Positions 2-59,905 of a DNA stretch of 64,000 nucleotides are shown piece after piece. The stretch comes from Candidatus Aminicenantes bacterium (GTDB lineage Bacteria > Acidobacteriota > Aminicenantia > Aminicenantales > Aminicenantaceae). The stretch is from contig WVXO01000064.1 in NCBI GenBank assembly GCA_011773465.1, forward strand, positions 57,929 through 121,928, written 5' to 3'. The translations under genes were made by a program, and so were the position numbers. Positions within the stretch are counted from its first letter, which is position 1. The number at the start of each line of letters is the position of its first letter. Below the pieces are notes generated by a model. It searched no databases. It saw only the letters and a list, made by a program, of their open reading frames with translations, and was not told the origin of the DNA.

Positions 2-1645
2 GAAACAGAGATGAAAAGGTTTGCCCGGATATTTTTCATCGGAAACAGGCTCTTTCGTTTCCTGATTAGGTATTATAAACCACTGCTGCGCTGGTCCCTA
101 TTCCACAGAAAAACTGTTATATCTGCTGCTCTCCTAGCCTTTTTTATCGCTTTGTTTATCATTGGAGCCGGTGTAATAAAAGTAGATTTTTTCCCCAAGG
201 AAGACATGGGACGCTTTAATATAAATCTTGAGCTCCCAATGGGATCGACTGTAGAAAAGACTAACCGTATAACCCAGCATATTGAAAGGCTTATCGCCCA
301 GATTCCTGAGGTAAAGGAGTATGTTTCTACTATTGGCGATACAGGGATGGTAATGTCCGACCTTACCGAGACTGCAGGAGGTAGTTCTGGGCCTGAGTTT
401 GGAAAGATACTCGTTAATATAGGCTATGATAACGAGAGAAAACGAAGCCAGTCTGAAGTTATCGAAGAGTTGGATTCAAAGTTGGCCGAGATCCCAGGGA
501 TTGAATACAGCTTCTTCGAAGTGGAAATGGGACCGCCCGTAGGAAGACCTGTAGCAATACAAGTATACGGGGAAGATTTTGAGGAGCTTAAAAATATAAG
601 CCAAACAGTTGAAAAACATTTAAAAAGTATTCCTGGCACGAGAAACGTTCAAAACAGTTTTCAAGAAAATAAACCTCAGATATCTATCAAAGTTGACAGA
701 ACAAACGCAGCAAAGTACGGAATCACTGCCCAAGAAATAACAATTCAAGTAATGGCAGCATTTCTTGGCTATGAAGCTACCGAAATCATGCTTGGCGATG
801 AACTCGTTGATGTTCGGGTCATTAATAAAGAAGCTCACAGGCAAAATTTTGAGGATGTGCTTGATACGCCTATATTCAGCACTGCAGGTATTAAGATGCC
901 ATTAAGCCAGTTTGCTCAGGTGGAAATTACAAAAGGTATATATAGAATCGATCGTCGCAACTTAAGACGTTCGGTGACAGTTGGTTGCGACGTCGATAAA
1001 GGTTATACGCCGCAGGAAATCTTTGCTTCAGTCCAGAAGCTTATGGAATTCACCCCGCCACCACAGGGATACAAACTAGAATACGGTGGAGAAGAGGAGG
1101 AGCGGCAGAGATCTTTCCAATCAATGACACGTGTGATGTTCCTCGGACTGATTCTTATTTTCTTTGTTCTAACGGCTCAGTTCGACTCCTTCAAGCAACC
1201 TTTAGTTATTCTTTTCACGGTTCCGCTTTCCATAATTGGTGTAGTAACAGGTCTGCTGATAACGAAGCTGACATTCAGTTTTATGGCTTTTGTTGGTGTC
1301 GTTGCCCTTGTTGGCATTGTGGTAAACGACGGTATAGTACTTATTGACTTCATAAATCAAAGACGTCGTCATGGAGTTGATCTCATAACGGCCATCTTCG
1401 ATGCCGGACCAAGAAGATTGAGGCCAGTTATGCTAACCACTGCTACAACAATCGGAGGACTCTTGCCTATCACACTCAACCTTGGAGGAGGGGGATCGTT
1501 CTGGGCGCCGCTAGGCACATCAATCATATTCGGATTATTATTCGCGACGATGCTGACTCTGGTTGTTGTGCCTTCTCTCTATTCCATCTTTGAAAGAAAG
1601 GCTTACAAAGAAGCTCTTTCTAAACATAGATCTCTAGGGGATTGA
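2..1645 (+). CDS. RND efflux transporter permease (AcrB/HAE1 family), C-terminal half. The gene is 5'-truncated by the window edge.
   Basis: The translation aligns with the AcrB periplasmic porter subdomain and TM7-12. Supporting segments include 'FFPKEDMGRFNINLELPMGSTVEKT', 'FMAFVGVVALVGIVVNDGIVLIDF' and 'RLRPVMLTTATTIGGLLPI'. The reading frame stays open to the window start. Confidence 0.85.
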   Translation, partial: ETEMKRFARIFFIGNRLFRFLIRYYKPLLRWSLFHRKTVISAALLAFFIALFIIGAGVIKVDFFPKEDMGRFNINLELPMGSTVEKTNRITQHIERLIAQIPEVKEYVSTIGDTGMVMSDLTETAGGSSGPEFGKILVNIGYDNERKRSQSEVIEELDSKLAEIPGIEYSFFEVEMGPPVGRPVAIQVYGEDFEELKNISQTVEKHLKSIPGTRNVQNSFQENKPQISIKVDRTNAAKYGITAQEITIQVMAAFLGYEATEIMLGDELVDVRVINKEAHRQNFEDVLDTPIFSTAGIKMPLSQFAQVEITKGIYRIDRRNLRRSVTVGCDVDKGYTPQEIFASVQKLMEFTPPPQGYKLEYGGEEEERQRSFQSMTRVMFLGLILIFFVLTAQFDSFKQPLVILFTVPLSIIGVVTGLLITKLTFSFMAFVGVVALVGIVVNDGIVLIDFINQRRRHGVDLITAIFDAGPRRLRPVMLTTATTIGGLLPITLNLGGGGSFWAPLGTSIIFGLLFATMLTLVVVPSLYSIFERKAYKEALSKHRSLGD

Positions 1646-1710
1646 TTCATCAAATCCGCCTTATTGTAGGGGCTTGATTTATCAAGCCCGCATTAGTGTA
1701 TGAGCTTGCC
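1637..1710. repeat. REP-like element (family A): two adjacent units, GTAG + GGGCTTGAT-TT-ATCAAGCCC palindrome.
   Basis: 'tgtaggggcttgatttatcaagccc', preceded by a degenerate copy 'ggggattgattcatcaaatcc'. Convergent intergenic region. Confidence 0.8.
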
Positions 1711-3854: not shown

Positions 3855-5165
3855 ATGTCAAGAAATCTCGATAATTTACAGAATAACAGAGAAAAAAAAT
3901 TCATCTCCCTTCAGGTGGGAATCTCATTTCTACAGACGCTTCTCTCATTTTTCGTACCAGGAGGAGTTCTCGTCCTGGCAGTATCATTTCTTCTGCTTCG
4001 AGGATTGCCAACCCTTACTTTACCTCTGCTGATCCGCATGTGTCCGTATGCTGTTTTGGCTGCTGGGATATGGTTCGGATGGCGTTTTAACCGAAGCAGG
4101 TTGATTTTTGTCATTATTGTTCTAGCGTTAGCTGACAGATCATTGCTGATCTTTGCAGAAGGTAGTGGGGCTTCAGTAGGTGCGGGGCGTATTGTGTATA
4201 ATGCTATCTGCATCCTGTTACCGGCGAATCTAGTTGTGTTTTCCTTTATTAAGGAGCGGGGGTTTTTAACCTGGCATGGTAAGTGGCCCCTGGGCATGAT
4301 TCTTTTCCAGATAATTGCCGTTATACTGATTGGCGCTTGGAAGCAGTTAGGCTTGAGCCCTTATCTGGAATACTCATTTATAAAAATGCGTTTATTCAGC
4401 CTTATACCCATGGCCCAGCCAGGCTTGATAGCATTTGGAGCAGCCTTTTTTATTCTTATATTTCGCTATGTTCAGCACCGGGGTTCGATCGAGTGCGCTT
4501 TTTTCTGGACATTAGTCTCATCATTTTTTGCTCTGGCATTGGGCGATATAGGTCCCATGTCCACAATCTTTTTCGCCACAGCAGGCCTTGTCCTTGTCAT
4601 CTCGGTGCTTGAGACATCTTTTAACTTCGCCTTCTACGACGATTTGACCGGTTTGCCGGCCCGTCGAGCCTTTAACGAAACTCTCTCTAAGATTGGACGC
4701 CACTTTACAGTCGCGATGATTGAAGTAGACTCTTTTAAGAAAATAAACGACCGTTATGGCCTTCTTGTTGGGGATCAAGTTCTGCGTATGGTTGCCACAA
4801 AGCTTGAAAAAGTAACTGGAGGCGGTCTATCCTATCGTTATAGCGGACAAAGGTTCGGAGTAGTTTTTCCTGCCAAGTTTGTGGACGAAACAATTCCCCA
4901 TCTGGAAAGCCTGAGGAAGGGCGTCGAGATATATGGCTTCATTCTCCGCGGTGCAAAGCGTCCACGCAAGAAACCCGCGAATCCAGAAAAGTATAGAGGA
5001 CCTCAAAAGAGAGTTCCCCTTACTATTGCCATCGGCGCGGTAGAAAGGGAAGACACCAGTGTAAAGCCAAAGTATGTAATCAAGGCCGCGGATCAAGCGC
5101 TTTTAAATGCTCAAAATATGGGGGGCAACCAAATCGCCACCCAACCTCCTAAACCTTCTTATTGA
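3855..5165 (+). CDS. Polytopic membrane protein with a C-terminal degenerate GGDEF domain (likely inactive diguanylate cyclase or c-di-GMP receptor).
   Basis: About 6-7 hydrophobic helices are followed by 'DDLTGLPARRAFNE...IEVDSFKKINDRYG...GDQVLRMVA'. The catalytic GG(D/E)EF site reads 'RYSGQRF'. A lysine/arginine-rich ~30 aa insert follows. Confidence 0.7.
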   Translation: MSRNLDNLQNNREKKFISLQVGISFLQTLLSFFVPGGVLVLAVSFLLLRGLPTLTLPLLIRMCPYAVLAAGIWFGWRFNRSRLIFVIIVLALADRSLLIFAEGSGASVGAGRIVYNAICILLPANLVVFSFIKERGFLTWHGKWPLGMILFQIIAVILIGAWKQLGLSPYLEYSFIKMRLFSLIPMAQPGLIAFGAAFFILIFRYVQHRGSIECAFFWTLVSSFFALALGDIGPMSTIFFATAGLVLVISVLETSFNFAFYDDLTGLPARRAFNETLSKIGRHFTVAMIEVDSFKKINDRYGLLVGDQVLRMVATKLEKVTGGGLSYRYSGQRFGVVFPAKFVDETIPHLESLRKGVEIYGFILRGAKRPRKKPANPEKYRGPQKRVPLTIAIGAVEREDTSVKPKYVIKAADQALLNAQNMGGNQIATQPPKPSY

Positions 5166-5470
5166 AGAAGTCAGTAAATACGTCTAATTTATTTGACCTG
5201 GAATTTTAAAGAGAAACTACCTTTTTTCTCGACAACTGGTAATGTAAAAAAAAGTAAAAAAAGGGACAGGCTACTTTTTGGAAAGGAAGAAAGCTATCTT
5301 TACCCAGGAATTGGCCTCAAAGAAAAAGGTGCTTCCCCTTATGAAAAAGTATTGACTTCGCGCTATGGTCTATATAAATTAGCATGCTAGTTTACAAGCA
5401 TTCTTGACTAAGGACATGTTCGCAGTGAGCATGATCGATCAAACACTTATCCCAATAATCAACAAGTACG

Positions 5471-5630
5471 GGCTTGATAAATCAAGCCCCTACATGAATT
5501 AAGCCTCTGCATGAATTAAGCCTCTGCATGAATCAAGCCCCTGCGTGAATCAAGCCCCTACATGAATCAAGCCCCTACATGAATCAAGCCCCTACATGAA
5601 TCAAGCCTCTACATGAATTAAGCCCTAATA
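5471..5630. repeat. Family A palindrome followed by 8 tandem 17-bp half-site units (atgaatcaagcccctac).
   Basis: Directly read. The units abut with no spacers and vary at 1-3 positions (tt/tc, ctc/ccc). Confidence 0.9.
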
Positions 5631-19967: not shown

Positions 19968-20006
19968 AATGGGCGCCAAAAAATGGGGACAGGCCCCATT
20001 TTTGTA
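19968..20006. repeat. Family C palindrome (A-run, GGGGNC hairpin, T-run), terminator-like.
   Basis: 'aaaaaatgggcgccaaaaaatggggacaggccccatttttg'. Confidence 0.6.
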
Positions 20007-20042: not shown

Positions 20043-20072
20043 AGAAAATGGGGCCTGTCCCCATTTTTTGCC
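20043..20072. repeat. Family C palindrome, reverse complement of the 19975-20000 copy.
   Basis: 'agaaaatggggcctgtccccatttttt'. Confidence 0.6.
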
Positions 20073-24743: not shown

Positions 24744-24788
24744 GAAATGGGGCCTGGCCCCATTTTAGTGGCCCCATTTTAGCAATTT
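24744..24788. repeat. Family C palindrome plus an adjacent half-site, in a divergent promoter region.
   Basis: 'gaaatggggcctggccccattttagtggccccatttt'. Confidence 0.6.
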
Positions 24789-32947: not shown

Positions 32948-33632
32948 TATTCTTCTTCACCCGTCCTGCAAGGACCGCCTATTCGACAATCCCTTTGATC
33001 CCGAGGCAGGGGAAATCGTCTTTGAGGTAGTTAGCACTATTTTAACTCCTTCCTACGTCCCGCTCTGCCTTACCTGGGACGGCAGCACCATATGGAATGT
33101 CGATGGCTACAATGAGACGCTCTACAGCCTCGACAAGCTTAGTGGAGCTCAAGTTAGAGCTTTAACATCTCCTCTTCCGGGAACAACAGGAATAGCCTAC
33201 GACGGCCAAGACCTCTGGGTATGCAGTGAATTGTCTGTTGATGTTTATAAAATAAATCTGTTAAACGGTGTGATCCAAAAAAGGCTCAATTTGCAAAGAG
33301 GCTCTTTTACAGCTATCGAGTATGGCTTGGATTCTTTATGGCTAGCTGATATTCAATCAAACATGATAATCAGGGTGGACCCAGAAACCGCTGAGATAAT
33401 CTCTTCATTTTCCAATCCGGGCGTTAGCGTAGATGGCTTAGCCTTTGACGGGAATGATTTTTGGATTTCTGACTCTTCAACCCTTACTATCTATCAAGTA
33501 ACCACTGAGGGGAGAGTCTTGAGGACTTTCCTTTCCCCTGGCCAATCTCCTCGAGGATTAGCTTTTGATGGGCATTATCTATGGAATGTGGATGGGGATC
33601 GAAAAATATATCAGTTGAGATTTCAAAATTGA
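32904..33632 (+). CDS. Lipoprotein made of 'DG..LW..D' beta-propeller-type repeats.
   Basis: Lipobox 'LLHPSC'. Four repeats, for example 'LTWDGSTIWNVDGYNETLYSLD' and 'LAFDGHYLWNVDGDRKIYQL'. The same repeat type occurs in CDS 48747-50372. Confidence 0.5.
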   Translation: MKIKIWHLPFLIAFSILLHPSCKDRLFDNPFDPEAGEIVFEVVSTILTPSYVPLCLTWDGSTIWNVDGYNETLYSLDKLSGAQVRALTSPLPGTTGIAYDGQDLWVCSELSVDVYKINLLNGVIQKRLNLQRGSFTAIEYGLDSLWLADIQSNMIIRVDPETAEIISSFSNPGVSVDGLAFDGNDFWISDSSTLTIYQVTTEGRVLRTFLSPGQSPRGLAFDGHYLWNVDGDRKIYQLRFQN

Positions 33633-35506
33633 ATTCTCTTAAAAATTTTACCCTAGTTTTTTTGCTTCTTTTCCTCATTTCTAGAGAAACTAATGCTTCA
33701 AATATGGGCTTGACGAATCAAATCCCTACAAAAGAAGATACATTGATTAGTTTAAAAGGCGAATACCTGGCCTACAGTTATGACTTTAATCAATTATACG
33801 GAGAAAATGTTGAATTCGAATTCTCTTCGTATAGTGTTTCCTGCCGTCAAATAAAGATAGATATTACTCCCAGAATATTTTATGCCTTTGGAGAAGTCAT
33901 TTTAAAAAAGGAGGATGAGAAACTAAATGGAGATGAATTCTTATTTGACTCTCAGGCAAAAAGAGGAACACTTATTAGCTACGGAGAAAAGATTGAAGTT
34001 AAAGAAATTGATAATGAGGGAAAGGAAATTTCTTTAAAAAAAAATGATGTTTTGACCGAGTTAACTCTTGCAAAAATTCAAAAATCATTGATTTATTTCG
34101 CTGGTCAGACGATCCATATAACAACCGATTTTGAAGTCTACGGATACAATGTGACTCTATTTGTAGAAGGCTTAGAATCCGTTAAGTTTAAGAAATTTAG
34201 ATTATCTGGCGGCATTGGCCAAAGAAGAAACGGAATTTCTTTAAACAGAGTATGGTATACAAAGTCCCAGGGCTTGATAGGGAGGGTGAGTTATTCCTAT
34301 GAAAAAGAGAAAAAAGTAAATAGTTTAACCCAGCTCAACTATGAAGAACATTCGTTCTTAAAAAATTATTCTGGGCTTAAGCGACAGGTAGACATTATTA
34401 GCTCAACAACCATAAATCTAAAAGATGATTTAAATCTTGGTCTAGCAGGAAACTATAATTCGAGTAATCTCTGGAATACACTCTTTTGGTTGAATAAAAA
34501 CTGGAGTAAAAAAATTAGTACGCAAGTAAATTTTTCATACAACAAGCCTATAAACCTTAAAGGAGAAGCCTGGTTTGGTCTTCAATCAAACATTGATACA
34601 GGAAAATTTGGAAATATTTCATTTTCAGGTAAATACGAGATTCAAAATCAGATGTTGGCCAATTTTTCATACGGAAATACTTTTTTGAAAAATATCAATT
34701 TCCTTTTATCCTCCACTTATTCCCAGATTAAGATTACTGAGAGCTCTGATTATTCTAAAATATTCTCGGGCGCAGTTAACCTCTCTTATAGTTCTCGAAT
34801 ATTTAATGTTTCCACGGATTATTTCTTGAATTATGACCTTTTTGGGGATCAACTCCTTTCACAGCCGCAACTCAGATTGGGGCTTAATCCATTTCAATTT
34901 TATGGGGGGCTAATATCTGCCAACATTTACAATATATTTATCTATAATAATTTGAAAAGAGGCGGAACCGAGGAAGACAGCTATAGTAATAATACAGTTC
35001 TCACTCTTTCAACCCAACCTGTTTTTCTCCATAAAAGCATGAGTCTAAATTATAGTTTTTCTCTCGAACAATTTGTCGAAAAAGAAGGAAGGAATTTCAC
35101 CTCTGGCGGATTTATCTTTAATCTAAACAAAAGTATTGTAAAGGGTATTTCTTTAGAAGGCCTCTACAGCCTTCAATCGAGAAGGAAAACAGAGGATTGG
35201 CTCATTGAGGGGACGACAAGTCAAGACTTGAGTGCTGTCTTAAAAGTTAATCCTTCAGAAAGATTAAATGGATGGATCTCTTTTTCTTACGACCCTAAAA
35301 ATAGTCAGTGGCGGCAGTCATTTGCTGATATTTCGGTAGGAATTATTAGGTACTGGAAACTTCATACTTTAATTCATTATGACTTTCTTTTAGAAAAGAT
35401 AAACAACGTCGATTTATATTTGATCCGTGATGCCGGAAGATTTCAGCTAAGGTTTATCTGGCGGAGTCTTTCCAAACAGTTTCTGATCGAATTGGTCCCA
35501 AGATGA
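33581..35506 (+). CDS. Large beta-rich hypothetical protein, possibly an outer-membrane protein. Start uncertain.
   Basis: Hydrophobic signal-like segment 'FTLVFLLLFLISRETNASN'. Asn/Ser/Tyr-rich alternating beta-strand character and a C-terminal aromatic residue near the end. The annotated start overlaps the upstream gene, so the true start is probably internal. Confidence 0.35.
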   Translation: MECGWGSKNISVEISKLNSLKNFTLVFLLLFLISRETNASNMGLTNQIPTKEDTLISLKGEYLAYSYDFNQLYGENVEFEFSSYSVSCRQIKIDITPRIFYAFGEVILKKEDEKLNGDEFLFDSQAKRGTLISYGEKIEVKEIDNEGKEISLKKNDVLTELTLAKIQKSLIYFAGQTIHITTDFEVYGYNVTLFVEGLESVKFKKFRLSGGIGQRRNGISLNRVWYTKSQGLIGRVSYSYEKEKKVNSLTQLNYEEHSFLKNYSGLKRQVDIISSTTINLKDDLNLGLAGNYNSSNLWNTLFWLNKNWSKKISTQVNFSYNKPINLKGEAWFGLQSNIDTGKFGNISFSGKYEIQNQMLANFSYGNTFLKNINFLLSSTYSQIKITESSDYSKIFSGAVNLSYSSRIFNVSTDYFLNYDLFGDQLLSQPQLRLGLNPFQFYGGLISANIYNIFIYNNLKRGGTEEDSYSNNTVLTLSTQPVFLHKSMSLNYSFSLEQFVEKEGRNFTSGGFIFNLNKSIVKGISLEGLYSLQSRRKTEDWLIEGTTSQDLSAVLKVNPSERLNGWISFSYDPKNSQWRQSFADISVGIIRYWKLHTLIHYDFLLEKINNVDLYLIRDAGRFQLRFIWRSLSKQFLIELVPR

Positions 35507-37766: not shown

Positions 37767-37795
37767 ATGTAGGGGCTTGATTCATCAAGCCCACC
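37767..37795. repeat. REP-like element, family A, single copy.
   Basis: 'atgtaggggcttgattcatcaagccc'. Confidence 0.8.
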
Positions 37796-37899
37796 TGTTG
37801 AATATAAAAAGAATTTGTATGTTTCTGATTTATCAAATACACATTTTAATATCATAAAAAGGTGGATTTGATAAGTCAAATCCCTGCAAAAATAAAATT

Positions 37900-39277: not shown

Positions 39278-39450
39278 GGTGGGCTTGATAAATCAAGCCC
39301 CTACAAATGAATCAAATCCCCACATTTTATATTATGTAGGTGTTTGATTTATCAAACACACATCTATGATTATTCAAATAAACAAGGCTTGATAAATCAA
39401 ACCCCTACAAATAAATCAGGCCCTTACAATCTAATTCAATTAAGGTTTGG
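39278..39450. repeat. Composite cluster of family A REP-like units in both orientations.
   Basis: 'gggcttgataaatcaagcccctacaaatgaatcaaatcccc', 'gtaggtgtttgatttatcaaacac' and 'ggcttgataaatcaaacccctacaaataaatcaggccc'. Confidence 0.8.
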
Positions 39451-40663: not shown

Positions 40664-40795
40664 GTGGGCTTTATGAATCAAGCCCCTACAAATTAATCAC
40701 GTTTCTTCAAAATAAACAAGGTGGGTTTGATAAATCAAACCCCTACAAATCAATCAAATCCTAGCAATTTATCAAGCCCCTACAATCTAATCAGG
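40664..40795. repeat. Composite cluster of family A REP-like units.
   Basis: 'gggctttatgaatcaagcccctacaaatt...gggtttgataaatcaaacccctacaaatcaatcaaatcc...atcaagcccctacaatctaatc'. Closely similar to the 39361-39445 portion on the other side of nifS. Confidence 0.8.
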
Positions 40796-47149: not shown

Positions 47150-48589
47150 ATGACAAATTACTTACTCATCATGGAGAACGATGTGCTTAAGGCAAGACAA
47201 AGAGGATTGACAAGGAAGGATGAGTTTATTACTTTCTTGGCTATGAATATCTTAATCATCGCTGGCGGAATTTCATTAATCATCTTGATCTGTTTTTTCT
47301 TTCTGTTTGCCCTTTACAGTCTTCTGGAGAAAGAAAAAAGAGCTTTCTGGCGCAGCAGCGTTGTCGTTCTTCTTTTAATTATAATAAGCCTTATTTTTTT
47401 CCTAGTTGAACCCCCGTTAAAAAATTGGCTGTTTGCCATCGCCCTTATTGTACTCTTACTGGATCTTGTAATCCTGCTCTTTTCTCCTTTAAAAAGAAAA
47501 TCAACAGAAATTGTAGGGAAACAGAAAAAAATTGATGAAAGAGATGTTATCTTTGCTCGTTTTGAATATAAGGAAGGCACTGCGACTTATAAGGAGTATT
47601 ATACGAGAAAACCTGAATGCAAGAAGATAGATGATGAAATAAGAAGAATTCCTGACATCCTCTCTCCTCCTCATCTGAAAAAACATCCACATCTTTTCTC
47701 TCTGGCTTCTGCAGAGTTTGGCTTTCTTGAACATCAATTAACTCAGGTAAGTGGAAGAGAAAGTAGAGAAAAGTCTCAATTATCACCTTCTGAAAGCACT
47801 CGAATAATAAAGGAAATTATAAAATATTTGGGTTCTGATCTGTGCGGCATCTCTTCTTTAGATCAAGCTTATGTTTACTCCCATGTGGGGAGAGGGCCAG
47901 AACATTATGGTGAGGAAATAAAGCTTGAGCACACTTACGCCATTACTTTTGCTTTAGAGATGGATTTAGGGATGGTTGCAACTGCGCCTAAAGAACCTGT
48001 TATTGTCGAGACTGGGAAGAAATATATCGAAGCGGCAAGAATATCTATCATCGTTGCTGATTTCATCCGCCGCCTTGGATATCCAGCCAGAGCCCATATC
48101 GCGGGAAGCAATTATCAGGCTATGCTACCTCCACTCGCCTGGCTGGCTGGATTAGGAGAATTAGGAAGGCTGGGGATTCTTATCACCTCCAAATACGGGC
48201 CCAGAGCGAGATTAGGGCTTATTACAACCGATATTCCTCTGATTGAGGATAAACCGAAAAAATTGGGTATCCAGAATTTCTGCCAGAAATGCTATAAATG
48301 CGCTAGAAATTGTCCGGCCCAGGCTATTCCTTACGAAAAGAAGGTAGAGGTAAACGGAGTGTTGAAATGGGCGCTTAATCGAGAGGAATGCTATAAATTC
48401 TGGAGAAGAGCAGGTACTGACTGTGCTGTTTGTATTTATGTCTGCCCTTACAGCAAATCGGACAATGCCTTCCACGGCTTTATCAGGAAAGTTATGGAAA
48501 ATTCTGCTGTTGCCCAGTCCTTTTCAGTCTGGGCTGATGACTTTTTCTACGGTCGCGTTCCCCTTCGCAGAAAATCACCTTTAGGTTAA
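47150..48589 (+). CDS. Membrane-anchored reductive-dehalogenase / epoxyqueuosine-reductase (RdhA/QueG)-like Fe-S protein.
   Basis: Three N-terminal TM helices. 'AGLGELGRLGILITSKYGPRARLGLITTDIPL...FCQKCYKCARNCPAQAI...CAVCIYVCP' parallels RdhA/QueG cores. Confidence 0.6.
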   Translation: MTNYLLIMENDVLKARQRGLTRKDEFITFLAMNILIIAGGISLIILICFFFLFALYSLLEKEKRAFWRSSVVVLLLIIISLIFFLVEPPLKNWLFAIALIVLLLDLVILLFSPLKRKSTEIVGKQKKIDERDVIFARFEYKEGTATYKEYYTRKPECKKIDDEIRRIPDILSPPHLKKHPHLFSLASAEFGFLEHQLTQVSGRESREKSQLSPSESTRIIKEIIKYLGSDLCGISSLDQAYVYSHVGRGPEHYGEEIKLEHTYAITFALEMDLGMVATAPKEPVIVETGKKYIEAARISIIVADFIRRLGYPARAHIAGSNYQAMLPPLAWLAGLGELGRLGILITSKYGPRARLGLITTDIPLIEDKPKKLGIQNFCQKCYKCARNCPAQAIPYEKKVEVNGVLKWALNREECYKFWRRAGTDCAVCIYVCPYSKSDNAFHGFIRKVMENSAVAQSFSVWADDFFYGRVPLRRKSPLG

Positions 48590-48626: not shown

Positions 48627-48758
48627 TGCGGGTTTGATAAATCAAACTCTTACAGATTCTAAGAAAAAATGAGCTCGATGAATCAAGCCCCTACAATAAA
48701 TAAAGGTGGGCTCGATGAATCAAGCCCCTACAGATGAATCAAGCCCCTACTTAATGGG
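48627..48758. repeat. Cluster of family A REP-like units.
   Basis: 'gggtttgataaatcaaactcttaca', 'gctcgatgaatcaagcccctacaa' and 'gggctcgatgaatcaagcccctacagatgaatcaagcccctac'. Confidence 0.8.
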
Positions 48759-50372
48759 CTTATTGTATTTTTTTTCTCCCAGGGGAGACCACATTCCATA
48801 GCTTTCTTCATGGATCCGGCATTTGCCTTCAGATGTCCAACTGAATCCGTAGTTATAGCCGAACCACAGGTATTTATCTCCGCCTCCATTCTCGGTGGTG
48901 ATGATATAGCGAGCAGCTACATTCCCGATTCCAAGCACCTTTCTCCCTGGCAAATTTGTATCTCCTTTATTAGCATCAAAAGGAATCCAGCCATAAGGTG
49001 GGAGATAAACTTCAGTCCAGCGGTGATAGACATCATCATAGCTGGCGTCATCTCCACGGCGGCTGACTGCGCCCACATAGCGAATGGGAACTCCCAGAGT
49101 TCGGCAGAGGGCAATCATAGAATATGAATATTCTGAGCAGGAAGCCGTGCCTCGTTTAAGAACTGTAGGAGCAGGATTCCAGCCTCCCAAAGGCTTGAGG
49201 TTATAAGTCAGGTGATTTCCTAGAAAATCATAGATGCGGCGGGCAATCCAGTAAGGATTCTTTTCCTTTCCAGCGATTTTTTGAGCAAGATTCTTGATAT
49301 AAGGATCATTGATACAATATTTATCCCCATCCTGGGTATATTTTTTTCTTATTTCTTTAGGGATGTCTTCCAGGCCGCCTATTTTATCCGGATAAATAAA
49401 GTACTCCGCAGCATATATGTTTGCTTTCACTTTCCAGCCTGGCTTGACGACTGAATTGCCTTTTAAATCTTTGAAATTAAAATGAGCAATTTTCTGTCCC
49501 CAGCTATCTTCGATAATTTCACTCGGTTCAAGGTCAAACCCGACAGGTTCCAGGAGCGATTGATTGTCACGGATTTGGGGAATAGGAAGATAGATGTCTA
49601 AAGTCTTTACTGTCCCTGGACCGTAGTTTCGAAATTCTTTTATAAAATGAAGGGACATCTGACGCTCATCCCACTTGGAGAAAATATCTTTACTGAAGAC
49701 ATCTATCTTGTATATCTCATCATTTTCATAATCGACATTCCAAAGTGAATTATCTCCCCAGGCTAGGCCATAGGCGAACGGACCATAGGCACGCAGAGAA
49801 GAAAGGCACAGTCCATCAGAAGGATTGACTAGATAAATCCGGTCTTCACTCCTATCTGTTACCCATAAATATTTACCGTCATATGCGATACCTGCTGGTT
49901 CTTGGGCCGGAGAGGGAAAGTTTTGGACCATCATCCCGTCCTCGGGGGAAACTTTGATCAGGATATCTCTCCTGTAGTCAACGATCCAGACATATTTTCC
50001 GTCCCAGGCAAGATCACGAGGATTGGAGCTGTTTGATTCCAGGATCGATAGAGCTCTTCCTGTTTCAGGGTCTAAGAGGTACATGTATTTCTCCCCAGAA
50101 TCTATATGCCAGAGATGTTTTCCGTCCCAAGCCAGCCCTTCAGGATGGTGGCCAGGAGAGTCAAAACTTTTAATAATTTTTCCACTCTCTGGATTTACCT
50201 TGTAGATTTTATCTGTAAAATTATCCGCAAGCCAAAGATTTTTCCCATCATAGGTTAGACCTGTCGGGCACGGCCCGGGCGTTTTTATTACTTTTTGGAT
50301 GTCTCCAACTTTTGCCCAGGATAAAGATGAAAGAAGAATCAAAATACAAATGCCTATGCTTATCCTTTTCAT
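48747..50372 (-). CDS. Secreted protein with N-terminal 'DG..LW..D' beta-propeller repeats and a C-terminal transglutaminase-like cysteine protease domain.
   Basis: Signal peptide. Repeats 'LTYDGKNLWLADNFTDKIYKVN' (four copies). Transglutaminase core 'GTASCSEYSYSM...HRWTEVYLPPYGWIPFDANKGD' (Cys-His-Asp). Confidence 0.7.
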   Translation of the reverse strand: MKRISIGICILILLSSLSWAKVGDIQKVIKTPGPCPTGLTYDGKNLWLADNFTDKIYKVNPESGKIIKSFDSPGHHPEGLAWDGKHLWHIDSGEKYMYLLDPETGRALSILESNSSNPRDLAWDGKYVWIVDYRRDILIKVSPEDGMMVQNFPSPAQEPAGIAYDGKYLWVTDRSEDRIYLVNPSDGLCLSSLRAYGPFAYGLAWGDNSLWNVDYENDEIYKIDVFSKDIFSKWDERQMSLHFIKEFRNYGPGTVKTLDIYLPIPQIRDNQSLLEPVGFDLEPSEIIEDSWGQKIAHFNFKDLKGNSVVKPGWKVKANIYAAEYFIYPDKIGGLEDIPKEIRKKYTQDGDKYCINDPYIKNLAQKIAGKEKNPYWIARRIYDFLGNHLTYNLKPLGGWNPAPTVLKRGTASCSEYSYSMIALCRTLGVPIRYVGAVSRRGDDASYDDVYHRWTEVYLPPYGWIPFDANKGDTNLPGRKVLGIGNVAARYIITTENGGGDKYLWFGYNYGFSWTSEGKCRIHEESYGMWSPLGEKKYNKPIK

Positions 50373-50536: not shown

Positions 50537-51862
50537 ATGGATACCACTCGTAGGAATTTTCTTAAAAGCATTGGTTTGGGCATCGGGAGTTTAAGTGTTT
50601 TTGGTTTATCCGCAAAAAGCGCCCAAGCTGAACTCAAGAAAAAATTGGCCAAGATAAAAGATTCATCTCCAACCGATATCGCGCAAGATGAAGATTTCTG
50701 GTTCTATGTCCAGCAGGCATTTGATTGTGACCGAAGTATCATAAATCTTAACAACGGAGGTGTTCATCCAGCCCCAAAAATTGTCATGGATGCTGTTCAC
50801 AGATATCTTGATTTCGCTAACGGCGCTCCTGTTTATAACTCATGGCAAGTCCTCCGGCCCAGAAAAGAACTCATAAGAAAAAAACTGGCTGATACTTTCG
50901 GGTGCTCGCCTGAGGAGATTGCCATCACCAGGAATGTAACTGAAGCCATGCAGATAGGTCTCCTTGGGATAGATCTTAAGCAGGGTGATGAACTCTTGAC
51001 CACAACCCATGACTATCCTTCCATGAAATATGCCCTTTTGCAGAGAGAAAAAAGGGAAGGAGTCAAAGTCAAGATGTTTCCTTTTTGCTATCCGCCCAAA
51101 AACATAAATGAACTGGCTGATGCCTTTAAGAAAAATATCACTCCCAGGACCAAGCTCATTGAAGTCTGTCACATCACCAATTTGACGGGTCAGATCTTTC
51201 CGATTAGAGAAATCTGCCAGATGGCAAAAGAGCGAGGAATAGAAGTGGTGGTAGACGGAGCTCATGCTTTTGGACACTTCGAGTTCAAGCAGAAGGACCT
51301 CGACTGCGATATCTACGGTGCTAATCTCCACAAATGGATGATGGCTCCTATAGGCACAGGTTTTCTCTATGTAAAAAAAGAAAAAATCAAGAAGATATGG
51401 CCCCTTTTTCCTGCTCTTGATCCTCAAGGTGATGACATCAGAAAATTTGAACACATCGGAACTCATCCTGATTACCTGGAGCTTGCCGTAGGTGAGGCCT
51501 TGGCCTTCCATCATGGGATCGGTGGTAAGAGAAAAGAAGAGAGAATGCGCTATCTGAGGAATTACTGGGCAAGAGCTCTTGAAAAGCTTCCCGGCGTAAA
51601 AATTCTAACTTCTTATGACCCAGAACAGTCTTGTGGTATAGGAACTTTCACAGTAGAAAACATGGATCTGTCTAAGTTGGTACAGATTCTGTTCGAGAAA
51701 CATAAAATCTACATCATCACAGTCGGAGTGCCATCTTTTGAACTGGATGGTGAACAGATTACTGGGATACGCGTAACGCCAAGCATCTACACAACCCTTC
51801 GCGAATTGGATACCTTTATCGAAGCAGTTTCCTATTATGTAAAACACGGGCTTCCGCAATGA
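50537..51862 (+). CDS. Tat-exported class-V-fold PLP-dependent enzyme (isopenicillin-N-epimerase / cysteine-desulfurase-like).
   Basis: 'TTRRNFLKSIGLGIGSLSVFGLSAKSAQA' Tat signal. 'VVVDGAHAFGH' and 'NLHKWMMAPIGTGFLYV' with PLP lysine. Confidence 0.7.
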   Translation: MDTTRRNFLKSIGLGIGSLSVFGLSAKSAQAELKKKLAKIKDSSPTDIAQDEDFWFYVQQAFDCDRSIINLNNGGVHPAPKIVMDAVHRYLDFANGAPVYNSWQVLRPRKELIRKKLADTFGCSPEEIAITRNVTEAMQIGLLGIDLKQGDELLTTTHDYPSMKYALLQREKREGVKVKMFPFCYPPKNINELADAFKKNITPRTKLIEVCHITNLTGQIFPIREICQMAKERGIEVVVDGAHAFGHFEFKQKDLDCDIYGANLHKWMMAPIGTGFLYVKKEKIKKIWPLFPALDPQGDDIRKFEHIGTHPDYLELAVGEALAFHHGIGGKRKEERMRYLRNYWARALEKLPGVKILTSYDPEQSCGIGTFTVENMDLSKLVQILFEKHKIYIITVGVPSFELDGEQITGIRVTPSIYTTLRELDTFIEAVSYYVKHGLPQ

Positions 51863-52001
51863 AGAAATGAAATCTCTTCTCTCGAAGATATCTCGAATAG
51901 AGATACTTAGCAGAGGTAAAAACAATTACCCAAGACACGGATATTTAGCAAGGATAAAGATAATCACCTGAGATAAAGATATTTGAGGAGTATAGCACAA
52001 G

Positions 52002-53225
52002 ATGAGATGGAATTTGGAACATGATCTTGATTTGATAAGGAAGGAATTCCCGATTTTAGAACGCTGTGTTTATCTCATCAGCAATTCATTGGGAGCTGTT
52101 CCCGGGAGAGCGCTGGAGAATCTACAGAAATTTTATCAGATTTGGGCAGAGGAAGGTGTGAGCGCTTGGGAGAAGGAATGGTGGGGCCTTTCGCGAAAAG
52201 TAGGAAATCAGGTGGCTTATTTTCTGGGAGCAGGCGAAGATGAAGTGACAATGATACCTAATGCAACTCACTGTCATTGGGTCGCTCTTTCGACTAAATT
52301 TCTTGCCCAAGACGAGAGAAGAAAAAAGATTGTCATGACAGACCATGACTTTCCTTCCATGATATACGCGGTCTCAAGAATCTCAGACTTCAGGGGATGG
52401 AAGGTTGAGATAGTGAGAAGTAACGGCAATCCAGGAATTGACGTCGAAGATATTTTAAAACGAATAGATGAAGAAACCCTTTTTGTTGCCACCTCCCATG
52501 TTTATTATAAATCAGCTTATATCCAGAACATAAAACAGATTTCTTCCAGGGCACGAGAAGTAGGCGCTCTGACTCTTATCGACGGCTATCATGCACCGGG
52601 TATCATTCCCGTGGATGTCAAACAACTTGATGCAGACTTTTATATAGGAGGCTGTCTGAAGTGGCTGTGCGGAGGGCCGGGAAACGCTTTCCTTTATGTT
52701 AGACCAGAGCTTTCAGAGAATCTCGATCCTCAGTTAACTGGCTGGTTTGCTCACCGAGAACCTTTCCTTTTTGCTCAAGATATGGAGTATGCCAGGGGAG
52801 GACAAAAGTTCATGTCAGGTACTCCGCCGGTACCTTGCCTTTACACAGCAAGGGCTGGCCTGGAGATCCTGAAAAAAATTGGAATCCCTGAAGTACGGGA
52901 TAAGTCGCTCTCCCTTACTGAGTTGATCATAAAAAAAGCCAAAGAAAGAGGATATCGTATTTTCACACCTGAAGAGAATAACCTCAGGGGAGGATCAGTC
53001 TCAATCAGCTTGCCCCATGCTTTTCCCCTTAAGCAGGCTCTAGATAAGCGTAGAGTTAAGGTTGATTTCAGGAAAGGGGATGATAAAGAACCAGATGTTA
53101 TAAGAGTGGGCCCTCATTTTTACAATAACGATGAAGAAATCGATATCTTATTCAAAGAAATCGATGCTATTTATGCTTCAGGAGAATTTAAGAAATTTCC
53201 AACGGGAATAAAGCATGTGACCTGA
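52002..53225 (+). CDS. Kynureninase-like class-V-fold PLP-dependent enzyme.
   Basis: 'YLISNSLGAVPG' (compare kynureninase 'YLDGNSLGA.P') and 'GGCLKWLCGGPG' (compare 'SYKYLN.GPG'). Confidence 0.5.
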   Translation: MRWNLEHDLDLIRKEFPILERCVYLISNSLGAVPGRALENLQKFYQIWAEEGVSAWEKEWWGLSRKVGNQVAYFLGAGEDEVTMIPNATHCHWVALSTKFLAQDERRKKIVMTDHDFPSMIYAVSRISDFRGWKVEIVRSNGNPGIDVEDILKRIDEETLFVATSHVYYKSAYIQNIKQISSRAREVGALTLIDGYHAPGIIPVDVKQLDADFYIGGCLKWLCGGPGNAFLYVRPELSENLDPQLTGWFAHREPFLFAQDMEYARGGQKFMSGTPPVPCLYTARAGLEILKKIGIPEVRDKSLSLTELIIKKAKERGYRIFTPEENNLRGGSVSISLPHAFPLKQALDKRRVKVDFRKGDDKEPDVIRVGPHFYNNDEEIDILFKEIDAIYASGEFKKFPTGIKHVT

Positions 53226-59680: not shown

Positions 59681-59905
59681 TTGGGCTTGATAAATCAAGC
59701 CCCTAAATAAGACAAATCAAGCCGTTGCAAAGAATATTTCCTGTCTCTTTCTTTTTTCCCTGTTTTATAAACTAAAAGCCATAAATATTAATAACGTGGG
59801 TTTGATAAATCAAGCCCCTACATAAGAAAATTCAATCCATCCAATATAATTACGTGGATCTGATATATCAAGCTCCTGCATAAAACAAATCAGACCGCTA
59901 TGTAA
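59681..59905. repeat. Cluster of family A REP-like units.
   Basis: 'gggcttgataaatcaagccccta', 'gggtttgataaatcaagcccctacat' and a degenerate 'ggatctgatatatcaagctcctgcat'. Confidence 0.75.

Follow-up and report, generated by a model that had tools for sequence, protein, structure and literature searches.

What are the short palindromes, each tagged with GTAG on one side, that recur between the genes of a 64,000-nt stretch of the Candidatus Aminicenantes bacterium contig WVXO01000064.1 (positions 57,929 to 121,928; here, the window)? They are very probably GTAG-tagged repetitive extragenic palindromic (REP) elements, spread by a Y1/HUH REP-associated tyrosine transposase (RAYT). This assignment had been proposed in an initial annotation and is upheld by an anatomy that fits published GTAG-tagged REPs and by RAYT genes that, in other sequences, are flanked by the exact repeat. 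The class is a known one, the window family is an additional member of it, and the known mechanism is left unchanged. Judging from sequence, the window copies would have been spread by such a RAYT, the gene for which lies beyond the window or has been lost.

The repeat family of the window

The exact pattern GGGCTTGAT-N(1,2)-ATCAAGCCC matches the window 5 times, compared to 0 matches in 100 shuffles, and the 13-mer GTAGGGGYTTGAT, with up to 2 mismatches, has 28 matches against 2.4 expected. An arm-neutral scan, which required 9-nt arms ending or starting in AT, a 2-nt centre, and at least 8 pairs, returned 13 sites, 12 of which are of the GGGCTTGAT-NN-ATCAAGCCC type. All 12 family hairpins are intergenic, though 88% of the window is coding (its G+C content is about 41%), and each has the foot GTAG/CTAC, or a one-base variant of it, on one side. 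The earlier description of the repeats as always intergenic is thus accurate for the hairpins but needs two footnotes, as the stop codons of the open reading frames (ORFs) 48747-50372(-) and 11-1645 lie inside feet. The seven loci listed initially are all real, and decayed copies at 33706-33729, 37817-37840, and 37864-37887 are added here. The 64 kb contain nine loci and about 18 units, all between genes or at gene ends.

Folded as single-stranded DNA (ssDNA), the unit forms a stem of 8 bp, closed by a TTYA loop of 4 nt (TTTA or TTCA), and leaves the GTAG free. The window hairpins have predicted folds of -7.3 to -10.5 kcal/mol, with z scores of -3.2 to -6.8. The module had been described as GTAG followed by a palindrome with a centre of 1 to 2 nt; the GTAG and the palindrome stand, but the centre is 2 nt in every window copy and never 1. 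The unit is asymmetric, with the foot and the pyrimidine-rich loop always on the same strand. Roughly half of the GTAGGGGYTTGAT matches are not hairpins and consist of the foot and a single arm, placed head to tail behind a complete unit; these are referred to below as half sites. A search of the whole window against Rfam at the gathering threshold gave no match. The copies are listed below, where REPIN stands for a REP doublet forming a hairpin.

1634..1657, plus strand: decayed REP, CTAG-GGGATTGAT-TC-ATCAAATCC; ORF 11-1645 has its stop codon in the TAG of this foot
1635-1708: 32-nt tandem unit, 2.3 copies, reported by Tandem Repeats Finder (TRF)
1666..1689, plus strand: canonical REP, GTAG-GGGCTTGAT-TT-ATCAAGCCC; ssDNA fold -8.4 kcal/mol, z -4.65
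5466..5493, minus strand: REP with the hairpin at 5470-5489 and CTAC at 5490-5493 (GTAG on the minus strand); fold -10.5 kcal/mol, z -6.8; nearly a "double foot," with GTAC at 5466-5469 on the opposite side
5480..5625, minus strand: tandem array of 8.6 copies of the 17-nt unit GTAGGGGCTTGATTCAT (minus strand), foot and 5' arm only; TRF score 222, 91% matches
33706..33729, minus strand: decayed REP, GGGCTTGAC-GA-ATCAAATCC-CTAC, within the 5' end of the longest ORF call, 33581-35506, the gene start of which is predicted
37769..37792, plus strand: canonical REP, GTAG-GGGCTTGAT-TC-ATCAAGCCC, followed by the tail ACC
37817..37887, both strands: decayed head-to-head doublet, REPIN-like; left unit GTAT-GTTTCTGAT-TT-ATCAAATAC (37817-37840, plus strand), right unit GGATTTGAT-AA-GTCAAATCC-CTGC (37864-37887, GTAG strand minus)
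39281..39323, minus strand: REP GGGCTTGAT-AA-ATCAAGCCC-CTAC (39281-39304) and a trailing half site, ATCAAATCCCCAC (39311-39323)
39336..39408, both strands: head-to-head doublet with a 25-nt spacer; left unit GTAG-GTGTTTGAT-TT-ATCAAACAC, with two compensated pairs (39336-39359, plus strand), right unit AGGCTTGAT-AA-ATCAAACCC-CTAC (39385-39408)
39415-39427: extra half site beside the preceding doublet
40666..40783, minus strand: cluster of two REPs and two half sites; REP GGGCTTTAT-GA-ATCAAGCCC-CTAC (40666-40689), compensated REP GGGTTTGAT-AA-ATCAAACCC-CTAC (40723-40746), half sites at 40753-40765 and 40771-40783
48630..48750, minus strand: cluster of three REPs (48630-48653, 48671-48694, and 48708-48731) and a 19-nt duplicated half site (48738-48750), the TAG of which is the stop codon of ORF 48747-50372(-)
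59683..59728, minus strand: REP GGGCTTGAT-AA-ATCAAGCCC-CTAA (59683-59706), between divergent genes, and a half site (59716-59728)
59798..59879, minus strand: REP GGGTTTGAT-AA-ATCAAGCCC-CTAC (59798-59821) and decayed REP GGATCTGAT-AT-ATCAAGCTC-CTGC (59856-59879)

The array of 17-nt units at 5480-5625 does not fold beyond the level of shuffled sequences (z -0.59). A CRISPR-like reading of it was rejected, as spacers are absent.

Covariation and selection on the hairpin

Few further copies, or no linkage of GTAG and palindrome outside the window, had been named as findings that would speak against a REP family. A pattern scan for GTAGGGGCTTGATNNATCAAGCCC over 185,579 species genomes found at least 116 stretches, and GTAG and palindrome are linked in every matching stretch of other genomes (144 exact copies, selected with GTAG in the motif). 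T occupies position -1 in 82% of these 144 copies.

Covariation was assessed in the window and the 116 stretches at sites picked by the pattern GTAGGGG-N14-CCC only. Of the 231 sites so obtained, 216 are paired throughout the six free positions, with more than 20 different stems represented; on the GTAG strand, TT forms the loop at 122 sites and TC at 85. Among 53 distinct sequences, 96% of the cells are paired, and all six variable pairs include changes on both sides. Double-change cells number 103, compared to 26.5 in shuffles (none of 500 shuffles reached as high a count), and controls with the partner slid by 1 to 3 columns show 24.5 to 46% pairing. The foot, the clamp, and the loop are fixed, whereas four stem pairs are free in sequence yet remain complementary throughout. 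The earlier claim that covariation reveals selection on the hairpin now has much stronger evidence than the three window variants first cited for it, two of which, GGGTTTGAT/ATCAAACCC and GTGTTTGAT/ATCAAACAC, are indeed compensated, whereas the third, GGGCTCGAT/ATCAAGCCC, contains a C-A mismatch.

The cognate RAYT family

A five-seed RAYT profile, run in six frames over the 116 stretches, gave two matches only, one in L027 and a weak one in L013. The latter is the N terminus of an HUH protein (..GYYFITICT..STHIHVIF) at a contig end, with the REP GTAGGGGTTCGATTTATCGAACCC in frame near the start of the fragment and the window's own REP, GGGCTTGATGAATCAAGCCCCTAC, 240 nt upstream of it. A Pfam search with this 91-aa fragment alone gave no match to Y1_Tnp, and its identification is due to its full-length homologues. 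These number 23 and are about 150 aa long; several match PF01797, and some are named RayT by JGI. Many start with VGVRFIEP or end in GSDKSDPY or GRINPTPT, peptides that correspond to translated REP units. At one further locus (L121), the RAYT gene has GTAG-REP(TTCG) to one side of it and REP(TCGG)-CTAC to the other.

In A2, a profile of this ~150-aa family, the positions of the HUH and WQ..YYEH motifs and of Y-I-x-N-N-P, the motif of the helix with the catalytic Tyr, are invariant (H82) or near-invariant (H84), with W116, Y120, E122, Y137, and N141-P142 also among the conserved ones. A2 matches the structure of Escherichia coli TnpA-REP (PDB 4ER8) with an E value of 2.8e-12 and IS200/IS605 transposases with E values of 3e-4 to 5e-3, and it retrieves 15,019 cluster representatives at E <= 1e-10. 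A metagenome scan with this profile yielded 80 loci, 81 with L121; at 77 of the 81, GT[AG]G hairpins are found inside the RAYT gene or no more than 400 nt away. REPs centred on ATTYAT accompany the closest RAYT relatives, and those with other centres accompany more distant ones. The RAYTs of this family stand alone between housekeeping genes, without tnpB.

The exact window REP is found just 3' of the RAYT gene in the metagenome contig L128, and again there in a downstream doublet; on both sides of the RAYT gene, along with four other stems, in the metagenome contig L203 (with L204 and L205); and inside a decayed RAYT gene in L132. RAYT genes of other sequences are thus flanked or interrupted by the exact window repeat, which is the REPtron arrangement. 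At positions 2825-3523 of L203, the RAYT gene stands amid REPs of five stems (CGCG, TCGC, CTTG, TCGG, and CTGG) with foot, clamp, and loop in common, and one of these REPs encodes the C-terminal residues of the RAYT, GLDESSPC.

Two candidates were discarded. The GLDKSSPY tail of the protein P0026 was considered as a product of the CTTG stem, but it is a CTCG stem variant that encodes this tail. The Y1 transposase of L027 was rejected as a partner of the repeats: it is flanked by an unrelated hairpin with a 20-bp stem, ACCACTCCCATACCGGGTTT..., and is a relative of the terminal inverted repeat (TIR) type. This 220-aa protein (PF01797; positions 4497-5375) is bracketed by the perfect hairpin ACCACTCCCATACCGGGTTT...AAACCCGGTATGGGAGTGGT, which lacks GTAG; the metagenome-assembled genome (MAG) of L027 is also rich in GTAG REPs.

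Comparison with known REP systems

The GTAG-tagged REP superfamily described by Di Nocera, De Gregorio, and Rocco (2013; PMC3733652) has stems of mostly 6 to 9 bp, many TY loops, compensated subfamilies, and frequent head-to-head heterodimers, and its members flank RAYT genes. Quentin et al. (2018; PMC6006769) surveyed TnpA-REP systems and found that the REPs next to subclass 2.4 carry three G-C pairs at the base of the stem; a double foot (GTAG...CTAC) is present in some of these REPs, and others lie in frame inside the RAYT gene. Units of the same design in Table S1 of that survey include GTAGGGGCGCGATTCATCGCGCCC, GTAGGCGCGCGATTTATCGCGCGC, and GTAGGGGCGAATTCATTCGCCC. The repeats studied here share with the REPs of both surveys the unpaired 5' GTAG at the foot, the perfect 8- to 9-bp stem, the triple of G-C pairs at its base, the TY/TTYA loop, and the occasional double foot. 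They likewise form compensated subfamilies; occur as singletons, head-to-head heterodimers, and clusters; and lie between genes, in some cases at gene ends, or within the RAYT reading frame. However, the GGGCTTGAT stem is absent from the supplementary tables of PMC3733652 and PMC6006769; the hosts are uncultured (Acidobacteriota/Aminicenantes-like, Omnitrophota, and others) and not Proteobacteria or Cyanobacteria; and copies of the window clade trail arm-only half sites, which the two surveys do not describe. The literal motif was not found in the searched literature, which also contained no link of REP or RAYT with Omnitrophota or Aminicenantes.

The closest relative of known structure is the E. 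coli enzyme (4ER8), which acts on REPs and the bacterial interspersed mosaic elements (BIMEs) built of them. The two systems share the logic of a GTAG guide next to a hairpin, as well as the REPtron layout. The E. coli enzyme is a monomeric HUH/Y1 protein that reads ssDNA. The E. coli REPs are longer and have an imperfect stem with an essential bulge, features that the repeats described here lack. The RAYTs of this family are also shorter than the E. coli one (about 150 versus 165 aa) and are without the C-terminal tail that in E. coli contacts the last two bases of GTAG. The family resembles the "group 3" systems, which have small perfect palindromes and in which loop bases are decisive (PMC8266576). 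Inverted REP doublets, the likely mobile unit of the REPINs of Pseudomonas fluorescens (Bertels and Rainey 2011; PMC3116915), occur in this family as well; unlike in P. fluorescens, the halves of a doublet usually have different stems, making them heterodimers.

Proposed mechanism and alternative explanations

In the three systems studied, those of E. coli, Stenotrophomonas maltophilia, and Marinomonas, TnpA-REP shows strand-specific binding to folded single strands and requires both the palindrome and the GTAG motif. It cleaves at CT or CA dinucleotides and is also able to join strands; with small perfect palindromes, particular loop bases matter (PMC8266576). The fixed foot, clamp, and loop, the variable but paired stems, and the presence of several stems per gene fit this mode of recognition. 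By analogy, a single-copy domesticated RAYT (TnpA-REP) would bind the REP as a folded single strand, reading the GTAG foot and the loop, with the stem needed for pairing only. It would then cut at a nearby CT or CA dinucleotide and transfer the strand, and copies would thereby be dispersed into intergenic DNA. The presumed substrate of the RAYTs of the L203/L128 type is single-stranded GTAGGGGCTTGATTTATCAAGCCC, besides the other REPs that flank them.

Four observations weigh against attributing the window copies to a RAYT. There is no RAYT in the 64-kb window itself, as stated initially: neither tblastn with E. coli RayT nor the five-seed hidden Markov model, applied in six frames, found one. 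The 116 stretches from other genomes have no adjoining RAYT except the partial one in L013. Most window copies are singletons or head-to-tail arrays, and inverted doublets with outermost GTAG feet, the form thought to be mobile, are limited to two (37817-37887 and 39336-39408). Finally, the enrichment of CT dinucleotides in the 7 nt 3' of the stem is only weak, at 44% against a background of 31%.

Transcription termination is the least improbable of the alternatives. REPs of other bacteria are reported to terminate transcription and stabilise mRNA (PMC6006769). In the window, six of the seven gene-adjacent clusters lie downstream of a gene in the sense orientation; the GTAG strand of several copies carries T-rich tails of the ACCTTT type, and a lenient terminator scan flags 48727-48708, 48690-48671, 40742-40723, 39405-39384, and 37883-37864. 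Nevertheless, it is unlikely that the hairpins are primarily intrinsic terminators or stabilisers of mRNA 3' ends, with the REP likeness being secondary. Over the window and the 116 stretches together, there is no clear orientation bias (singletons, 37 sense versus 27 antisense), and 23 to 28 copies lie between divergent genes. The T-run begins 3 nt past the stem, and termination leaves unexplained the unpaired GTAG, the strand-specific TY loop, the arm-only arrays that do not fold, and the copies that flank or interrupt RAYT genes. As the orientation bias is not significant, termination was dropped as the main explanation and kept as a possible secondary use; some copies may have been recruited as stop codons or weak terminators.

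A more closely related alternative, that the repeats are miniature derivatives of IS200/IS605 insertion sequences (ends of TnpA/TnpB elements) and not REPs of a domesticated RAYT, appears very improbable. IS200/IS605 and REP systems do share a Y1/HUH enzyme, subterminal hairpins, and a 5' guide tetranucleotide (PMC6006769, PMC8266576). However, the associated proteins are far closer to TnpA-REP than to IS200/IS605 transposases, by the E values given above, and retain the WQ..YYEH region, which contacts GTAG in E. coli. They are encoded by lone genes, as described, and the same hairpin, inverted, is found on both sides of the gene, which is the REPtron layout and not that of distinct left and right insertion sequence ends. 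Least credible of all, and close to negligible, is a role of the palindrome as a duplex operator of a dimeric regulator, with the half-site arrays as iterated binding sites. The core is palindromic, and the direct half-site arrays have a regular spacing of 17 to 19 nt, but the stems (more than 20 of them) change freely as long as both arms change, whereas a base-reading protein would conserve the sequence. Moreover, the element is asymmetric, with the foot on one side and the TY loop always on the strand of the foot, and its copies show no preference for promoter regions.

Within the REP-RAYT interpretation, a more specific scenario can be offered only tentatively and is more doubtful than the assignment itself. 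The compact (~150 aa) RAYTs might work with a modular REP, in which only four stem pairs are free to differ while foot, GGG/CCC clamp, and TTYA loop stay constant, such that one enzyme serves several stems, as many as five in L203. This package might have moved horizontally among more than 15 phyla of uncultured, mostly anaerobic bacteria, and the arm-only arrays might be footprints of abortive cut-and-join events and not of replication slippage. If true, such a horizontally moving enzyme-REP package would contradict the strictly vertical picture of REPIN-RAYT systems.

Distribution in other genomes and turnover

At least 13 of the 116 stretches listed come from the MAG CAYUXD01, a close relative of the window genome (here, the sister MAG). 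The other stretches carry at least 15 phylum-level labels, which are MAG labels, some of them plainly unreliable. They include Omnitrophota, Aminicenantes, Atribacterota, Elusimicrobia, Chloroflexota, Planctomycetes, Ignavibacteria, and Thermodesulfobacteriota, as well as Auribacterota, Zixibacteria, Methylomirabilota, WOR-3, and one short Altiarchaeota contig. Viral contigs contain zero copies of the motif and so give no sign of phage carriage. Clustering of the ORFs around the 116 loci identified only housekeeping families as recurrent neighbors.

In most of the other genomes, the GGGCTTGAT hairpin forms the right-hand unit of a head-to-head doublet with the layout GTAG-GGG-NNNN-ATTYAT-NNNN-CCC, a short spacer, and GGGCTTGATRAATCAAGCCC-CTAC. 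The left stem of these doublets is lineage specific and always self-complementary (TTCG, TCGG, CTCA, CGCA, CGCC, or TTGG). Inverted doublets are the rule among the Omnitrophota and Thermodesulfobacteriota copies; in the window clade and the Aminicenantes MAGs, copies are usually singletons, with AAGGT or AGTGC before them and half sites with A-rich spacing after them. In one Omnitrophota MAG and one Thermodesulfobacteriota MAG, the doublet is embedded in a composite of ~135 nt with 12-nt TIRs, CTGTGTCRYAAT ... ATTRTGACACAG, which show a compensated change of their own. This composite is found at the following loci:

Omnitrophota MAG: L006, L027, L049, L051, L071, L079, and L092
Thermodesulfobacteriota MAG: L015, L030, and L093

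The foot, the clamp, and the loop are set by the type of enzyme, so that only four stem pairs distinguish the unit, and convergence on the CTTG stem is possible; for some of the labels, binning errors are likely. The identity across phyla is thus less striking than at first sight, and the spread over many phyla is the one mildly unusual feature of the family. On the other hand, the same few stems recur together, and the ~135-nt composite is found under two phylum labels, which points to some horizontal spread, in agreement with the patchy distribution of RAYTs noted in PMC6006769. Published descriptions present REPIN-RAYT systems as inherited vertically within a lineage. The occurrence of this 24-mer under many phylum labels is relevant to the question of whether their inheritance is always vertical. 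These data also extend the RAYT/REP system to uncultured lineages and provide natural cases of one RAYT gene bracketed by REPs of several stems.

Closer to the window, turnover is fast relative to the sister genome. In locus L029 of the sister MAG, the flanking DNA aligns with the window at 91% identity, and the encoded proteins are 92 to 94% identical to those of the window. The spacer orthologous to 48630..48750, however, has a different REP content and lacks the 19-nt duplication, which in the window (48714-48750) is perfect. Its absence from the sister spacer indicates that the half sites are, at least in part, local tandem duplications, and the arm-only half sites and the arrays with 17- to 19-nt periods probably arose in this way.

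Gene ends, neighboring genes, and other repeats

The window encodes ordinary chromosomal genes, including those for an RND permease, a GGDEF protein, NifS, a reductive-dehalogenase-like protein, and an acidobacterial-type VWA protein. ORF 11-1645, which encodes the RND permease, has its stop codon within the CTAG foot variant at 1642-1645. The sister MAG counterpart (L029) of ORF 48747-50372(-) ends in a different sequence. The gene at 47150-48589, which adjoins a REP cluster, scores above the cutoff for the reductive dehalogenase family TIGR02486. For genome annotation, the 24-mers and their arrays should be treated as repeats and not as genes, as they give rise to spurious short ORFs (with peptides such as GLINQAPT, GLDKSSPY, or VGxxFIxP), and REPs supply or shift the stop codons of real genes.

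Three other repeats were noted. Right after the REPs at the left end of the window, positions 1694-1790 contain an unrelated repeat of ~35 nt in two tandem copies, GAGCTTGCCACGTCGCTGCACTCCTCGCAATAACA and GAGATTGCCGCGCTCCGTTCAGTCGCTCACAATGACA, at the sole such locus of the window. Its core, CTCGCAATGACA, is found 29 times, with no more than 1 mismatch, in 19 of the 116 REP loci, in other phyla; this repeat seems to be another interspersed family of wide distribution. The palindrome AAAATGGGGACAGGCCCCATTTT, placed between an A-run and a T-run, is found at 19982-20000, 20047-20065, and 24746-24764, as well as in the related MAG loci L001, L018, L028, and L055; it looks like a bidirectional terminator. 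Finally, the spacer between ORFs 50537-51862 and 52002-53225 contains, at 51897-51984, 2.3 copies of a 38-nt tandem repeat, ATAAAGATATTTAGCAGAGGTAAAAACAATCACCCAAG.

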